Origin: Patellaria atrata CBS 101060 | Taxonomy: Eukaryota | NCBI GenBank assembly: GCA_010093705.1 | Contig: MU006097.1 | Location: 1 to 64,000, forward strand | Direction of reading: 5' to 3' | DNA length: 64,000 bases | Part shown: piece by piece, positions 4,622-31,399 of the stretch | Layout: each line of letters opens with the position of its first letter | Numbering within the stretch: the first letter of the stretch is position 1 | Notes under the pieces: generated by a model | Databases searched by the model: none | What the model was told of the DNA's origin: nothing | Seen by the model: only the letters and a program-made list of their open reading frames with translations | Made by a program: the position numbers and the translations under genes

Positions 4622-6345
4622 TATGTGCGGCAAAGGTATACTTGTAATCTTAGAAGAGGGTGAGCAATTCGAGGTTTTTACAAGGAATGAACGAAAGGTA
4701 GTCGCAATAGGCTTTTTTGCGCTGTGTAGGACGCGACTAAATCATCACCACATGTGACAACGTGTAGGTCAATTTTACGTCACAGGCCAAGCCTAATCTT
4801 AGAGTACAGCAATGTTAGGTTACTACCTCATACTCCGCGGCAGTACATAAAGGTGTGTACGCGTATTGATTACGAAATACTTTGAATGAAGTTTTTTTGA
4901 AAGTAAGGTATATAATAACCTAATGCATATAGAAGTAATTCTGATGGTGTTGGTACCGTATGAGAAGATGTTAGTTTTTGACCCTTGCAAGGATGGATAC
5001 TGTACTATGATAATAAGACTTCGTCTCAGGTTGGCCTAAAGCATGCTGTTGTTGAACTCGTGAGAAAGGAAAGTCCCGAATCTATACTTGTGTTTATACA
5101 ACTTCTAATAAGGTACGGTACCTTACCTTATCACTGCTGTTGTATCCAATGATGATGAGAACGGCAGGTCCATGTGGATTCACGATTAGGCGGTTGTAAC
5201 CTAAGTCATAGAATCTAATACTGTACTGTACTGCACTGCACAAAGTAAGGAAGTAATAGGGCCATAACAGGAGTATCTCACTTTTTCTGCTCTCCGGTAT
5301 TCGAACTCTGGCTGAGGTACTTGCTCCGATCCTGTCGAGCTCCGAAATTACAAGTATCCTCAGCCTCATAAAGCTCATTTGGGAATATGAAGTTGAAGGT
5401 ACAGATATAGTAAGATAAGTTTTCGAGATAGGAAATAAAAGCTATATTCTGTTGGTGAATTTATTAAGAATAAAAGAACGTTGGGAAAGCCGAGACGAAA
5501 CCTGATATGATATTGCACTAGTCTTAAAGTGTGTATAGTGCGGCTCCTCTAATCGTTCGGTTCATTAAGGTACAAAAGGCAGGGCCGATTTTAGAATCAA
5601 GTCCCAATACCACCCATAGTGGGCTTAGCGAGTCTTATTTATAAGAGATATTAAAGAGGCCTTTAGTACTATAAGCGATCTTATAATACTCTTTAAATCT
5701 ATCCCTTTTTCCAAATTTATTTACTCCATCTAGTAAGTTTATTAGAGGTCCCCTGAAATTTTGTACTGTAAGCCGGGAAACCTAACCAAACCTAACTCGG
5801 AAAGCAAGCCAACACAAAATCAAACCTACATCTCACCTCACCTCAACTCACTTACCTCACCATATAGCTCGGGAACTCCTTTCGTACATTAAAGATTTTT
5901 CTTTGCTCATTCTCAGCTGTTTAGCTTGTAACTTCAAGTGGCACAGGTGGATCGTATAAGAAGAACGGTAAAATCGACACGTGGAGAGTCCAAACATGAT
6001 CACCATTGGAACGTTTGGCTGAGGTAGTCTACGGTGAGGTCTCCGATGGGATTCAAGTCCAAAAGAATGGCACTAACCTTAACTTAAAGGCCAGTAATAG
6101 TTGTTGTATAGTATAATGCCGTGTTTCTAGAAGGGTATTTGGTGGTAGACCGTGGAATTGCAAAATTAGCCTACTTTTAACGTTTTCTCTCAACCTTTGG
6201 CCATCCTGTTCTTATATAATTAGTGTGATAGTGACGTCGTGATAGTCTCGCTTTATTCTTAAAGACTTTCTATTCCACCTCACCTTTTATCAAACTTATC
6301 TGCCTTCCAATCTCCGTACAGATCCCTCTAACCTTCTACTATACG

Positions 6346-23533: not shown

Positions 23534-25576
23534 CTATCGCAGAGGGACCTTAACATCTTGCACACCACTCTTTATTACATCCTCTAGCTTCCATCTCGGT
23601 GGAGTGACCGAGGGTTTCTTGCCTGTAGCTTCCATCTCGCGTCTAATCTCTTTCTCCATCTCGTTGGTTAAGCCATCAGGTAATGGTTCAGCACCGCCGG
23701 CAATGCCGCTTGAGAACTTGAGTTGGACCTCGTTTCCGATCTCATTACAAGCAGTCAGCATTCTGTCTAAGTCGTCTTTTGTATGAGCTGCCGAGACGCA
23801 GAAACGAGCGCGAGATGAAACGAGGGGAGTAGCAGGATATCCGACTACGACGACGGAAATCTTGCGCTTTAGCATTTGGTGAGAGAAAGCCGGCATCTTT
23901 GCGGGATTGTAAAGCATGAGGGGAATAATAGGAGAGTCATCATGACCAACGACAATGAAACCTAGCCGCTTGAGCCCTAGGCGGAGGTATCGAGAGTTGA
24001 AAGCTAATCTTTGCAGTCGCTCTTCACCTTGGCCTGGGCTAAGCTCTCCTGTAATGATCTTGAGGGCTGACAGAATTTGCATAAGCACAGGTGGAGTGGG
24101 TGATTCGCCAAACATGGTACCTGCGTTCGTAGCACGGAGTTTGTCGATAATGGGTTTGTCTGCGGCAATATAGCCTCCATTTGCGCCAAATGACTTCGTG
24201 AGGGTACCCATAAGAATGTCAACTTCAGCAGGATCGATACCGAAGTAATCGCATACGCCACGTCCTTTTGGTCCAAGTGCTCCGACGGAGTGCGCCTCAT
24301 CGACGTAAAGACTGAATTTGTACTTTTTCTTGAGCTCGACGAGGCCTGGAAGATTACACATGGTTCCCTCCATGGAGTATAAACCTTCGACAGCAACGAG
24401 GATCTTCTTCCACGGACGATGTGTTCTTGGTTGACCCTGAGAGATTACTTCTCTAAGTAAGCGTTCCAAATCTTGCATGTCGTTGTGCTTGAACATTTCT
24501 ATCATAGCTCCCGATAATCTCGCGCCGAATCGAATTGATGAATGGTTGAGCTCGTCAGAGATGATAAGACATCCTTTCCCCATGAGAGCAGGGAAAGCAA
24601 CAGCGTTTGTGACAAAGCCCATCGAGAATACCATAGATGCAGGTTTCCCAACGAATTTAGCAATGCAGTCCTCGACCTCCAGATGAAGATCTGTAGTACC
24701 AACATCTCCTCTAGAGCTAACGGTGCTGATACCGTATTTTTTAACTGTGGCTTCTACAGCATCCGCACAAGGGCCCTCCGACTGTGCAAATCCGAGGTAA
24801 TTGTAGGAGCTCATATTAAGAGTTTCCGTGGTAGTACCTGTGAACTGGAAATTGTAGAATCCATCGTTCGAAGTCCTATCAAGGAGAGTGATATATCGAC
24901 CTGGGACTCCTGTGGTCGGGCGATTAAAGCAATCATTGATACGCATCTTGAGCCGACGAACGTAAAAGTTATCGAAATCGCTATTCAGCGGAGCGTAGCC
25001 GTTCCTTTCCATAAGATGTTGGTAATAGTTTTTCCTGAATCGTTTCCCAAAAAAGTCTCGAACGTGTCCAAAGATGATAAGAATAAGATATGAAATATAA
25101 GTCGTCAATAGGAAAAAGTACGGTGGTTCATCTTCAATAGGTTCGGGAAACTCTCCTCCAGTAAATCTGCTCGAGTATCTATGAGTTTGCGAACCTAGGG
25201 GACCGAATTGAGCGTGTTGTCTAGCAATTCGACGCGCTTCCTCCGGCGAAGGAGGTTGGAAGATAGTTGTTGTCCGATCTTCCATTGCCTTCTCGCCCGT
25301 CGCAGTGGACAAGGATATAGTAGGTAAGGATAGTGTCGAGACGTTGATGGAAGGCGAGGGAGAATTCCGCAGAGCTCTCTGCTGAGCAGCGAGCGCAGCT
25401 TGGAAGGCTGGGTCGCTAGCCTTCGACTTAGGAGACGTTGAAAAGAATGACGTGAATCGATTATTCGTTTTGGAAAGAGAGGACCTCCTAACGTTCTTCT
25501 TCTCGCTTGGTGGATCGAGAATAGATGCGTTGGGAGAGGGATTGCTAGCGAAAGGGTTGATGCTTCGAGTAGGCAT
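23534..25576 (-). CDS. LCB2: Serine palmitoyltransferase subunit 2
   Basis: Motifs LNMSSYNYLGFAQ, SDELNHSSI, YVDEAHS and the PLP lysine motif GTLTKSFG. Single 680-aa exon. Confidence 0.96.
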   Translation of the reverse strand: MPTRSINPFASNPSPNASILDPPSEKKNVRRSSLSKTNNRFTSFFSTSPKSKASDPAFQAALAAQQRALRNSPSPSINVSTLSLPTISLSTATGEKAMEDRTTTIFQPPSPEEARRIARQHAQFGPLGSQTHRYSSRFTGGEFPEPIEDEPPYFFLLTTYISYLILIIFGHVRDFFGKRFRKNYYQHLMERNGYAPLNSDFDNFYVRRLKMRINDCFNRPTTGVPGRYITLLDRTSNDGFYNFQFTGTTTETLNMSSYNYLGFAQSEGPCADAVEATVKKYGISTVSSRGDVGTTDLHLEVEDCIAKFVGKPASMVFSMGFVTNAVAFPALMGKGCLIISDELNHSSIRFGARLSGAMIEMFKHNDMQDLERLLREVISQGQPRTHRPWKKILVAVEGLYSMEGTMCNLPGLVELKKKYKFSLYVDEAHSVGALGPKGRGVCDYFGIDPAEVDILMGTLTKSFGANGGYIAADKPIIDKLRATNAGTMFGESPTPPVLMQILSALKIITGELSPGQGEERLQRLAFNSRYLRLGLKRLGFIVVGHDDSPIIPLMLYNPAKMPAFSHQMLKRKISVVVVGYPATPLVSSRARFCVSAAHTKDDLDRMLTACNEIGNEVQLKFSSGIAGGAEPLPDGLTNEMEKEIRREMEATGKKPSVTPPRWKLEDVIKSGVQDVKVPLR

Positions 25577-27140
25577 GATAGTAGGTTCGAAAGGGCCCCT
25601 GGGTTGATTTGCTGGAGATCTTTGAAGATGTCCAATTGCAATTTAGGATAGGAGAGGAGAAGGGCGTAAGATGATGGAGTCGATGCGTAAAGGTCTAGCA
25701 GATTTGTAGTTTTATGGAGGTGCTGAGTCAAACTATACAGAAGTACTTTCCAGTATTAGCCACTATAGCTCAAGGAAGAATCATCAAGCAGAAAATATTT
25801 TAGATGGTACTGGTGGGAGTGAAGAGGGAAGCAGTTTGTTGTAATTTCTCTCGACCGGAGGTGCGCGGGAAAGAAGGAAGCATCCGGCTCACGAAGAGAT
25901 TCTCTTAAAGGTTGAAGCGCGTACTGGGACAATTTTGCTTTTTGAATTGCATGTAAGATAGGAGGAAATAGGTTTACTTACAAGCGACAGGTATTGCACA
26001 CAACGTCTGAGCCCTTAAAAGAGCGAGGAAGAGCTGTTGTAGCACAAAAATCTCCAACGGCCGCGAGGAGCAAAGGAGAGAAATGGAGCTCTGGCGATGC
26101 TGGGCGAGACTGCAAGGTACCCACGTCCGAGGCCCAAGCCCCCCCGCAGACCCCCTTATTAAGATTTCCACGCGACGGCTTCCCGACAAATGTCCGGTTT
26201 CCAAAAGCTACGGCCTTCGATCAAGAGTCCGATATTGCGAAAAGAAAAGGAAATAGAAGTATAAGGAACGATTGAGGTGAAAGGAAATAAGGACTTGAAG
26301 ATGGTACGGATCAGATATCTCTTAAAATTGAGTTGAAATTAAATTTCGAAGATCAAAGGTCAGCCAGTAAGAAAGCAGAGAAAGGGAAAAGCTAAATACA
26401 AGAATGATACAGGGATAGGTAAGCATGTGGTAAGCCCAACGGTTATAACGAGATACCCGACCCGACGGCGTTAGGTTACGAGTACTGAACTGTATTATAC
26501 GACAAGGTTGGATATCTTGCAATTGGTTCTGTCTACTGATGTACAGTACAGCACTCTCAATTATAGTCGTTTAGATTTATCCTTCTGTGAGATCCTCATT
26601 CTCGATCGGATACAATTGAGTGAATATACAGTACTATACTCTATGGGAGTAATACTACAGGTAATAAATCCGTTTGCAGATCTTAGGCATGAGTCGAGGC
26701 AACCCCTTTTCATAGGCTAGACCGCTCTGTGACTCCAAGCAAATGGGCAAGAAATGCAAGTTGTCACCTTATTCACCCACATCAAGACCCTTCGTTCAGA
26801 GATACAAGCATGAATCGTAACCGGTATATATGGTTTGATTCAACCGAGCAGATTGCACTTTTACTAAGCTCGACTCTTGACCCTGATTCCAGCTGCCATG
26901 CAAGAATGGGAGCAATGACGAGCCGTCGTAAGCTTTCAATACCACCTTAACCAACTCTCAGGGTGATAAGAATCAATTTACTATCCTACATGCTTTTGAG
27001 AAATGTACCTACATACGCTGCGATTGAGGAAGCCAGCGGAAATGGGTGGCAAGATCATCAAAGTGAGAGATGCCCAGATGCGTTTGGACGTCGTACCTTT
27101 TGATCTTACCTTTCCATCCCAATCAACGGCCATGTGCTTT

Positions 27141-27179
27141 GCAGGTAAGTATTTCCCGGTACAACCTATACTCACCCAC
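27141..27179 (-). promoter_or_regulatory. Hairpin pairing a 5' splice-site-like motif with an exact U1 snRNA 5'-end sequence, downstream of the U1-70K stop
   Basis: The minus strand reads GUGGGUGAGUAU-N15-AUACUUACCUGC, which gives 12 contiguous pairs including 3 G-U. Confidence 0.45.
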
Positions 27180-27600
27180 CAGAAAACAAAACATAATGAA
27201 AAGATTAAAGAAGACCTGGGGGAGCAGCAGCTTGGCTAGTAAAACATGAGAAAAACCAATTCCAATCCCACTTCTTCCGCTTACCCGTGTTTGTCGTGTC
27301 GGGCAAATTACTTGTTGTGTGTGCGAAAGAGTTGACGGGGCGGTCGTTCGAAGCGGTATCGGTAGTATCGGCGACGTATCTGGAAACTGAGAGAGTTTGC
27401 GCATGCTTACCCTTGCAATGATAGTTGCGAAAGTAGCTTGGGTGAGAAAAGACCAGCTAAAGCCGTCCAAAAATTGTCTGCCTTACCCTTGGTGTGAAAG
27501 GGGTGAAGTGTGAAAAGTGTGAATGCGAAAATCGAGTATACCAGGGACACAATGGACATGCTATAGTCCAGTAAAAGAGCTGGAACTTGCAACAGCGAGT

Positions 27601-28908
27601 CTAGTACCTTCTCTTGCTTCTGGGGTCGTCGTATCCATCACCGCCGTAGTTGCGTTTCTTGGAACCATCGTCTCGTCCGTAGGGGCCGTCATGTTCGCGA
27701 TCTCTAAACCCAGATCCTGGTTCGCCTCTCTTACCCACAGGTTCACGGTTGCTTCCACTTCCGCGATCGCCCCCCCTGTATCCTCTATCTTCGTAGGGTC
27801 GACCACCACCATTAGGACCATCCATGGGACCGGAATTACCGTAACGGCCGCCACCTCCATACCCACCACCAAAGCCGCCTCCTCTACCACCACGAGGTCC
27901 GGAGGGTGCTCCTTCGGGAGGCGCTCCATTACCTTGGAACCCGATACCGCCTCTACCTCCACTATACCCACCTCTAAAACCACCTCTATCTCCGCCAAAG
28001 CCTCCTCTGAAGCCGCCGCCGCCGCCTCGACCACGGAAGCCTCCACCACTAAATCCACCTCGGAACCCACCAGGACCAGCCGGAGGACCAAACCCTCCTG
28101 AGCCTGATGGTCTTGCTGGAAGCGCCTTAGTATATCCACGTCCGCCTAGACCGCCTCCAAAGCGTCGAGGTCGCCATCCAGAAACGGTCCTGCCACGCTC
28201 GACGTCAACAAGTACTCGTCGGTCTTTGATACGGATACCATCGGTTTCTTTGTAAGCGGCTATAGAAAAGAAAGCAGAGCTCTCGTGTTAGTCTTGATCA
28301 CACAGATTTACCTGATAGGGGAGGATTGGAGTTGGGGAATTGGGATGAGTGCTGCAGTACCCTTCATGTCCTTCTCACGCTCATATACAATGAAAGCATA
28401 GCCTTTCGTTTTCTTCTTCGCTAATTTCTCTGGACTTGCGTGAGTATCGGCAACAATACGTATCTATGTGCTTGTCAGCGATGAACTGGTGATACGATGA
28501 TAAAAATGATAGATAAAAACATACCCTTTCAATAGGGCCGAAACGCCCGAACTCTCTCTCGAGATCTTTAACTTCTGTATCATAGCTCAACCTAGCTACG
28601 AACAGTGTCTTGAAAGCATCTCCTCTCACTTGCGGATCCTCGTCTGGTTTGTATTCCTTGACGCCCTCCGTCAAAAGATTCGTAATCTTCTCCTTCTTCT
28701 CCTGTTTGATCCTATCTCTGCGCTGCTGCCAGCTCTCGGTTGGGACATAATGATCATCGTACTCCTTCAGAGCTTGAAGATAATCGCCAACACCGGTAAT
28801 CTTCGCGGTCCGGCGATTTTCGGGCGCATGGTCGGCGTGAACTAGGTATCGCAATGCTGGTCGCGGTGCGAAGAGCGCAAGAAGATTTGGTGGGAGTTTA
28901 TCTGTCAT
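27601..28908 (-). CDS. SNP1: U1 snRNP 70 kDa protein (U1-70K), 3 exons
   Basis: [31 protein letters not shown]...[23 protein letters not shown]...[22 protein letters not shown], and an RGG-rich tail. Introns at about 28524-28464 and 28360-28260. Confidence 0.96.
28281..28306 (-). promoter_or_regulatory. Candidate U1 stem-loop-I mimic hairpin overlapping the branch point of U1-70K intron 2
   Basis: The sense RNA reads UCU-GUGU-[GAUCAAGACUA]-ACAC-(G)-AGA. The loop resembles the U1-70K-binding loop GAUCACGAAG. The branch sequence GACUAAC spans the loop/stem junction. Confidence 0.55.
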
Positions 28909-29435
28909 AATGGCATTTGTCAAAATGAAGCGCCGATAAATCAAGATGACAGGCACGTAGGACCCGATCCAGATATGTTCTGGGGATGAAAACAATAAAA
29001 GGAATGAGTTGAAGTGGAAGGTTGGGGTTACAAGGATCGCGTCCAAGGCTTAGTAACTCTAGTCGTGGGACTGCAAACCGCCCAAAATCAATGGGACCAT
29101 CAGACTCTCCCTATACTGAGAGGAAATTAACACCAGAAAGACAATAGTTATAGGACCGTGAAGAAGTCAGAATATTTTCCCTGATACATAGAATATACTG
29201 GTCTCTTCAGATTTTCAAATTTGCTCGAATTTTATACCGTAATCCCTTATTGAAGAAGGTGACTTTCTGTTAGTCCCACGATTAGTTACCAAGCCTTGGT
29301 CCCTTTCTCTCAGTGCCAAGAAAAACCCTTTTCCAAATAAGGCCCGTGCACCATCTTCGGCTTCAAACAGTTCAACTTTCTAGCGATGGAATAATGATAT
29401 ATCGTTATCATACTTCCTCCACAAGTGTCATCAAT

Positions 29436-29960
29436 ATGCCTCTTGCAGCATTAAGGTCTGTCGCCAAAGGCCAGGTATTTGCATTCCTCTAAAATCCGTT
29501 CACTCTCCAACCAGACTAATACTTGAATCCGTAGAATGGCGTCGGCGCATTCGTGCTCCAATGCAAACGCCTCGATTTTCATTACTGCGACTGGGCGGGC
29601 AGTTCGAAGGGCATGAAGTATGGCTGTCAAACAGGATTTCTCTTCATCTACTAATTCCCCTTTAGCTCCTTTCTTAAGCACACCCTTCCGAGCTTTGCGA
29701 AAAAGCACCCTCAAATCGAAATCCGCGTATCCCCACGACCGAGTAAGCATCCCGTCATCAAAGCATCCTATATAAATGGGCGTGAGAAGGCCATTTGTGT
29801 ACGAAATATGGAGAAAGAAGAGATTCTTCAAAAAGCTGAGCTATTACGAGATGCCAGTGGAGAAAAATTGAAACGGACGCTCAATAAACCGGTGAAGAGT
29901 TTAAACGAAAGCATAAGAGGTGTTTGGAGTCCGTTCCATGGAGCTCGATATCAAATATAA
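29436..29960 (+). CDS. MRPL51: Mitochondrial large ribosomal subunit protein mL43, 3 exons
   Basis: Exons read MPLAALRSVAKGQ / NGVGAFVLQCKRLDFHYCDWAGSSKGM / ...HPVIKASYINGREKAICVRN...SIRGVWSPFHG. Confidence 0.93.

Positions 29961-30183: not shown

Positions 30184-31399
<1,216 letters not shown>

Follow-up and report, generated by a model that had tools for sequence, protein, structure and literature searches.

Conserved donor-like sites in intron 2 and behind the stop codon of a fungal U1-70K gene, candidate elements for control by U1 snRNP

The U1-70K locus and its introns

The window analysed here is a stretch of 64,000 nucleotides from Patellaria atrata CBS 101060 (contig MU006097.1), a fungus that we take to be a Dothideomycete. 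The gene that runs from 28908 to 27601 on its minus strand, with the ATG at 28908, encodes U1-70K (SNP1), as the database matches to its product carry PF12220, the U1-70K N-terminal domain (Table 1). For exon 1, the translation matches a database protein labelled Patellaria atrata at 100% identity, and this protein aligns with human U1-70K with an E value of 1e-50. Removal of both introns, including splicing of intron 2 from 28360 to 28260, yields the junction DMK-A-AYK and a protein of 381 amino acids, and the non-consensus GUACUG at 28360, here termed the outer donor, is therefore the productive one, in agreement with the initial annotation of this locus. The same annotation described an inner donor, CAG/GUAAAU at 28311 (the slash marks the splice junction), the use of which would add 49 nt, shift the frame and lead to UGA at 28207-28205; each of these coordinates proved to be correct. 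The inner donor splits intron 2 into parts of 49 and 52 nt, and its use would give rise to a predicted product of 196 amino acids, while complete retention of intron 2 would bring about a stop after 179 amino acids.

Table 1. Features of the U1-70K gene and its 3' flank, in window coordinates.
Feature	Position	Strand	Remarks
Coding exon 1, 384 nt	28525..28908	minus	PF12220 matches, identity to database protein
Intron 1, 61 nt, phase 0 (GPIER/IR)	28464..28524	minus	ordinary geometry: donor-branch 49 nt, branch-AG 12 nt
Exon 2, 103 nt	28361..28463	minus	82-nt human exon 7 plus 7 codons
Intron 2, 101 nt, phase 1 (DMK/A)	28260..28360	minus	position of human intron 7
Productive (outer) donor AGG/GTACTG, weak, without +5G	28355..28360	minus	U1 match and cross-species count
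Inner donor CAG/GTAAAT, first intron base 28311	28306..28314	minus	proposed U1 decoy, 23 nt before branch A
Branch site GACTAAC, branch A 28288	28287..28293	minus	sole CTRAY within 60 nt of the acceptor
Predicted 6-bp hairpin, branch point to acceptor	28270..28284	minus	-5.8 kcal/mol, z -3.2
TGA met upon inner-donor use	28205..28207	minus	translation of the shifted frame
Exon 3, coding part	27601..28259	minus	ends in TAG 27603-27601
Array of donor-like sites past the stop	27091..27489	minus	first G of GT at 27486, 27410, 27284, 27175, 27109; weaker tandem at 27096
11-nt stretch identical to U1 snRNA 5' end (Rfam U1 consensus)	27142..27152	minus	not conserved

The frames surrounding the gene presumably encode a serine palmitoyltransferase LCB2-like protein (23534-25642, minus strand), a mitochondrial ribosomal L51/S25-type protein (29655-29960, plus strand) and a triosephosphate isomerase-like protein (30245-31189, minus strand). 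Upstream of the U1-70K start, at 29043-29299, imperfect inverted repeats of about 30 nt lie about 200 nt apart; the left arm also matches other contigs, and the pair resembles a small element of the MITE type located in the promoter region.

Intron 2 of the window lies at the position and phase of human intron 7 (phase 1, human S159), and intron 1 at the position of intron 6 of human and Arabidopsis. With the human ATG assumed to be offset by 10 nt within exon 2, the upstream human exons total 131 codons and both boundaries agree. Exon 7 is 82 nt in length in human as well as in Arabidopsis (PMC8211703, Table S4), and exon 2 of the window, at 103 nt, corresponds to these 82 nt plus 21 nt; the protein alignment with human has a single gap there, of seven residues. 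The coding exons of Arabidopsis are in phase 0 ahead of the 82-nt exon and in phase 1 behind it, as in the window. The assignment of intron 2 to human intron 7, and of intron 1 to intron 6, follows from these exon lengths, the seven-residue gap and the phases. In human, the 82-nt exon is followed by a 642-nt intron and then by a 72-nt exon (PMC8211703, Table S4), the latter of which fits exon 7a of PMC3798272. The long Arabidopsis U1-70K intron, of 909 nt, precedes the 82-nt exon, i.e. it is intron 6 (PMC8211703, Table S4). It is accordingly the counterpart of intron 1 of the window and not of intron 2, so that the expectation of a shared position holds for human intron 7, in codon and phase, whereas the Arabidopsis parallel moves to the neighbouring intron. 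Golovkin and Reddy are said to have identified this long Arabidopsis intron, in 1996, as the alternatively retained one.

The two donors of intron 2

Pairing with the 5' end of U1 was scored across donor positions -3 to +8 (11 positions). The outer donor of intron 2 forms four Watson-Crick pairs and one G.U pair, compared with seven and one for the donor of intron 1, and the inner donor pairs at 9 of the 11 positions, which makes it the top U1 match within intron 2. A scan for homologues provided 80 related loci, or 81 with the window, comprising 58 with a parsed intron at this codon, 11 without (four cDNA-like contigs and seven genomic loci) and 12 that were cut short, duplicate or unparsed. 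Exclusion of near-duplicates left 39 introns, of which 33, including that of the window, are long (89-255 nt) and six are short (46-75 nt); the 54-nt intron 2 of locus L078 was counted as short, and was scored as negative within the set used for the shuffle test.

A strict AG/GTA motif located 18-32 nt upstream of the branch point was found in 26 of the 33 long introns and in none of the six short ones, and a looser donor pattern at the same place in 30/33 and 0/6, respectively. Shuffled sequences (1000 shuffles) gave means of 0.2 and 1.3 for the strict and loose patterns, with maxima of 3 and 5. The three long introns that are missing the loose pattern (L014, L041 and L046) have variant sites. 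Among 31 intron-1 controls, the strict motif was present internally in none, and the loose pattern, sought anywhere in the intron, in five. The loci are kin rather than independent, 20 of the 33 belonging to a single group, which on sequence grounds we infer to resemble NCBI-named Sordariomycete and Leotiomycete proteins. The initial annotation had named beforehand an internal donor lacking conservation as the observation that would speak against it; the donor is conserved. Guanine at position +5 of the outer donor is present in 1/33 long and 3/6 short examples of intron 2, as against 27/31 intron-1 controls; the outer donor is weak and stays so across species. Nearly all inner donors show exon-side pairing and are without +5G, and in many loci of the 20-locus group a second donor lies 9-16 nt downstream of the first. 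Six species-level variants have a short, plain intron 2 and seven genomic loci have none, indicating that the element is dispensable in some lineages.

The distance from the inner donor to the branch A is 23 nt in the window, and from the branch A to the 3' end of the intron 29 nt. Across the 33 long introns the corresponding ranges are 14-30 nt (with L041 assigned by hand) and 19-39 nt, as against 35-117 nt and 9-20 nt in the 26 intron-1 controls for which a branch site could be recognised, and the inner-donor spacing is fixed even though the long introns range from 89 to 255 nt. Working rules for Aspergillus, as given in excerpts of PMC5587772 and PMC6616335, put the distance from donor to branch element at 25-120 nt, always exceeding that on the acceptor side, with a minimum intron of 42 nt (PMC5587772); with 13 nt between donor and branch element and 24 nt between branch element and acceptor, the inner intron of the window breaks the spacing rules. 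The branch-AG distance of 29 nt likewise falls beyond the 9-25 nt that an excerpt of PMC4408805 reports for 96% of Neurospora introns. The spacing limit applied here is an empirical one, derived from 26 introns of one position plus rules of thumb, as opposed to a proven physical limit. The initial description of a normal-sized 52-nt intron thus holds for length and fails for geometry, the donor-branch distance being 23 nt against at least 35 nt in the controls, and the branch-AG distance 29 nt. Smith and Nadal-Ginard reportedly showed in 1989, for alpha-tropomyosin, that a branch point too close to the donor blocks splicing.

The hairpin predicted between branch point and acceptor would cut the effective branch-AG distance in the window from 29 to about 14 nt. 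Hairpins in this interval have z values below -1 in 20/33 long introns. Covariation within the hairpin was not significant, since the 97.9% of paired cells was equalled by 71 of 500 shuffles.

A separate motif of 16 nt (GGC, a loop of 9-10 nt and GCC, with a variable lower stem) occurs in mid-intron 2 of L009, L010, L023 and 17 further loci; in this 20-locus group it lies upstream of the inner donor, and it is missing from the window. Three proteins (P0117, P0129 and P0131) suggest at least two tandem copies in some species, and RNAalifold picked a different register for the motif. A poison exon in this larger group was considered and rejected, as the AG before the motif is mostly without a branch point. 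The motif has five loop letters in common with the U1 stem-loop I consensus, this consensus being that of Rfam and not a fungal U1. The intron of the window matches the Rfam stem-loop I loop at 8/10 positions, within a small hairpin over the branch site. A conserved mimic of stem-loop I was nevertheless rejected, given a shuffle p of 0.037 and 0.14 such matches per 100 nt of window; 8/10 was reached by only 1 of 38 other loci.

Protein models provide a further view of how intron 2 is read. The search was restricted to proteins of 70-224 amino acids, which selects truncated forms, so that no rate is derivable from the counts that follow. Among 120 short matches are 39 NCBI-named models, of which 24 are spliced at intron 1 and continue into intron 2, three end in intron 1, and the other 12 are partial, spliced or mixed. 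One protein, P0046, appears from back-translation against the consensus of its relatives to read across the entire intron 2 to the acceptor. Three JGI/IMG proteins (P0084, P0107 and P0129), on contigs of about 1 kb, are without the upstream introns yet read into intron 2. Proteins of the JGI/IMG pipeline are, we assume, called by a prokaryotic gene finder, and if so, these three would derive from transcripts in which the 5' part of intron 2, at least, is retained. The odd geometry could by itself mislead gene predictors. The elements of intron 2 may account for many fungal U1-70K gene models ending there. Most read-through peptides end ahead of the inner donor, where retention and inner-donor use are inseparable. 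Retention breaks the frame or brings a stop in 32/33 long introns. Searches with the shifted frames gave no match for one frame and 24 for the other, the 12 of these that were inspected being internal-start calls or genomic read-through. Separately, P0105 is identical to the full-length P0121 up to the intron-2 donor and then carries 10 further residues that do not match the usual read-through of the intron and are not obviously encoded by exon 3; this tail may reflect an alternative acceptor.

Donor-like sites behind the stop codon

Five RG/GTRAG sites lie 114-491 nt past the stop codon of the window, where 0.09 would be expected, and this array constitutes the top count of such sites per 600 nt on either strand of the 64-kb window. 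For none of the five was a CTRAY plus AG at normal spacing found in the 300 nt that follow. Since the pattern was picked after viewing the window, the relatives serve as the test. Of 45 loci tried, with L036 excluded on account of an extra intron, 30 (the window and 29 others) have at least 250 nt beyond the stop, four of them (L011, L016, L017 and L021) being close kin. All 30 have at least one donor-like site past the stop, with 75 sites in 17,463 nt, or 4.29/kb. The antisense strand has six (0.34/kb), upstream flanks five in 44,220 nt (0.11/kb) and far-downstream sequence two in 12,172 nt (0.16/kb), so that the density is 12- to 39-fold over the three controls, an imperfect background in that upstream flanks are not 3' ends of other genes.

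The sites form a strand-specific cluster, which is also kept in loci with a short intron 2 or without one. The order of the sites is conserved in part, and close to the far end tandem donors are spaced by 10-14 nt. Three intron-free contigs without a genomic partner still carry array sites (L008 four, L012 two and L045 one), and these cDNA-like contigs are probably of RNA origin. L049 is from a distant fungus and has a plain intron 2 of 46 nt; five near-perfect CAG/GTRAGT sites are located 56-170 nt past its stop. In L004, L035 and L078, which have a plain short intron 2, a donor lies 10-13 nt before CTGAC plus AG within 300 nt past the stop; in these lineages the module of a donor next to a branch point has possibly been relocated behind the stop. 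The same three loci, and also L045, have in common a hairpin-like element past the stop that encloses two donor-like sites.

Pairing between the donor-like site at 27175 and the 11-nt stretch of the array that repeats the U1 5' end is possible, in the centroid structure only (z -1.2). This stretch was rejected as a U1 gene, since Rfam gave no match in the window at gathering score, nor in 25700-29600 at E values up to 5. Three of the contigs retrieved (L090, L091 and L094), which are short and assigned to bacterial MAGs, carry complete or near-complete eukaryotic U1 snRNA genes, i.e. contamination.

A candidate mechanism, its alternatives and known systems

A weak outer donor and a stronger inner donor thus coexist in intron 2, the inner one about 25 nt upstream of the branch point. 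From the positions, conservation, geometry and predicted stops we infer U1 binding, competition, retention and decay along the following lines. We see an even chance that these sites of the U1-70K pre-mRNA bind U1 snRNP, stay mostly unspliced and reduce the output of U1-70K at times of abundant intact U1 snRNP. So short a spacer would not allow productive assembly of both U1, at the inner donor, and the factors at the branch point (SF1/BBP, then U2). Were the branch site committed first, the outer donor would be spliced and full protein made; were a second U1 to reach the inner site first, the intron would stall and be retained, or now and then be cut at the inner donor. Either outcome would place a premature stop inside the RRM, presumably followed by decay, and with more U1 the blocking race would be won more often, which would amount to negative feedback. 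The sign of this feedback is a kinetic argument and not a measurement: U1 might occupy a stronger decoy whatever its own level, in which case sequence alone does not yield the sign, and the sensor could read U1 composition instead. The array past the stop may form a second layer; its most likely target is 3'-end formation or nuclear export, by analogy with the systems of PMC5473595 and PMC9074902, in the parts of these papers available. Two findings from Neurospora bear on the decoy model. According to an excerpt of PMC4549623, mRNA of snp1 (NCU07548) rises 2.3-fold on exosome knockdown, as do the transcripts of many spliceosome genes, and this rise is for that reason no support; the splicing of many weak sites in this fungus, reported in the accessible part of PMC4408805, counts against the model.

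One alternative is genuine donor function of the inner site, in which case the 52-nt inner intron would be excised, 49 nt added, the frame shifted and the mRNA degraded. Its standing as the best U1 match in the intron would suit this, as would an inner intron of typical length (45-62 nt in most species), the broken frame or added stop that inner-donor use entails in 30/33 loci, and the use of human cryptic donors once decay is blocked (PMC3798272, in excerpt). However, the donor-branch spacing of 14-30 nt in 33/33 long introns is under every one of the 26 controls (35-117 nt), which speaks against a normally used donor as first envisaged, and with the hairpin folded the inner intron would effectively measure about 37 nt, below the Aspergillus minimum cited above. 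Frames are distributed 8/13/12, so that in-frame use of the inner donor is not clearly avoided and three loci would remain open, and no equivalent of the junction 28311 to 28260 was found in protein and sequence searches, which are weak tests. We consider this alternative rather unlikely. It is also unlikely, in our judgement, that the intron-2 elements act via something other than the level of U1, candidates for which are a protein on the inner site or hairpins, U1 composition (U1C, Luc7), an effect of temperature on the branch-AG hairpin, or a U1-bound site aiding the outer donor. The conserved pairing between branch point and AG, the separate 16-nt hairpin motif conserved in 20 loci of one group, and the exon-side pairing without +5G of nearly all inner donors are compatible with such a role, and human cryptic donor sites differ in sign and in U1C dependence in the excerpt of PMC3798272; but it is the core complementary to U1, and the spacing between this core and the branch point, that all groups have in common, the window is without the 16-nt motif, and the 3' array points independently to U1 binding.

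A recursive, zero-length-exon or stwintron-like removal, in which the 49-nt part is spliced to CAG first and the 52-nt part afterwards, had also been raised for this junction, and here the CAG/GT of the window and the pyrimidine-rich 5' part of intron 2 are as would be expected. Yet a YTRAY 9-40 nt before the inner junction is absent in 27/33 loci, the window included, leaving the first step in the window without a branch point; four loci have TG or CG instead of AG at the inner junction, AAG or GAG is found there in most, a context better suited to a donor than to an acceptor, and the second step would meet the identical short spacing. We regard this route as very improbable. Fungal splice signals are short and frequent by chance (PMC4408805, as excerpted), and a chance occurrence or neutral relic might be suspected on those grounds; but 26/33 against a shuffle maximum of 3, with the spacing fixed in otherwise poorly alignable introns, together with a 3' array at 12- to 39-fold over three controls, renders this scarcely credible, and the sequence conservation largely refutes it.

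The preferred reading of U1-binding decoys has its closest relative in the intron 7/exon 7a switch of vertebrate SNRNP70 (Rosel-Hillgartner et al. 2013, PMC3798272; statements on this and the following papers, save PMC8211703, refer to available excerpts). Gene, intron position and phase are alike, as are intronic cryptic U1-type donors and unproductive forms with a premature stop, which in the fungal case is predicted; the human cryptic donors bind U1 and see little use, and the remainder of the intron is for the most part left in place. The vertebrate switch differs in that downstream donors activate an alternative acceptor located at 642 nt within a long intron; the window has no such acceptor plus branch point, a poison-exon acceptor inside intron 2 being left without a branch point for the 49-nt part, and its donor abuts the branch point of a 101-nt intron. 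The excerpt of PMC3798272 deals with vertebrates only and has no 3' array. The fungal case as proposed works like the exon 7a switch and is, with the alternative acceptor missing, not a strict member; on the sequence comparison the conserved feature is real, and the fungal version differs from the vertebrate one.

The SRSF5/srp2 intron (Lareau and Brenner 2015, PMC4379411, in excerpt) is likewise a splicing-factor intron at an animal-shared position, unusually long and retained in fungi, with decay demonstrated in Neurospora; its sequence is not notably conserved among Aspergilli, whereas U1-70K intron 2 has conserved, defined elements. The genes for U11-48K and U11/U12-65K, with their USSE and a 3'-UTR U1 site, also have unspliced, partly tandem donors in an snRNP-protein gene, which affect 3'-end cleavage and nuclear retention (PMC5473595, available part). 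The USSE, however, consists of minor-spliceosome donors that activate an upstream acceptor, while the sites here are U1-type and in fungal U1-70K. Among pseudo-5' splice sites, a donor that is never spliced impairs, through the U1 bound to it, the removal of the intron in which it lies (PMC13100119), and mature mRNAs with donor motifs are retained in the nucleus in a U1-70K-dependent manner (PMC9074902); in the excerpts available both are animal cases, with neither U1-70K autoregulation nor branch-point overlap described. Stwintrons, too, have two donor-like elements in one intervening sequence (PMC6616335 and PMC5587772, excerpts), but the window has no internal intron, equipped with a branch point of its own, that would interrupt a splice signal. 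Full-text literature searches found no account of the fungal U1-70K elements, nor did keyword checks of PMC8216456, PMC8211703 and PMC12861292, although subscription papers or supplements may contain one.

A broader proposal, which we put forward tentatively and regard as possible rather than probable, is that U1-70K has been under U1-binding decoys at the same intron since before the split of animals and fungi; in filamentous ascomycetes the donor would lie too near the branch point to splice, with U1 masking the branch site, and the post-stop array would give U1 snRNP control of 3'-end formation or export. If true, U1-70K homeostasis would extend from vertebrates to fungi at the same intron and would join SRSF5 as unproductive splicing common to kingdoms, and an array kept where the intron element is lost would imply a splicing-independent function of U1 in fungi. 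The 101-nt intron offers a natural test of the smallest workable donor-branch distance and of U1 as repressor, and the 3' array makes U1 snRNP control of polyadenylation or export testable in Neurospora or Aspergillus. Elsewhere on the minus strand of the window, at 5836-5855, three G/GTRAG sites are packed into 20 nt.
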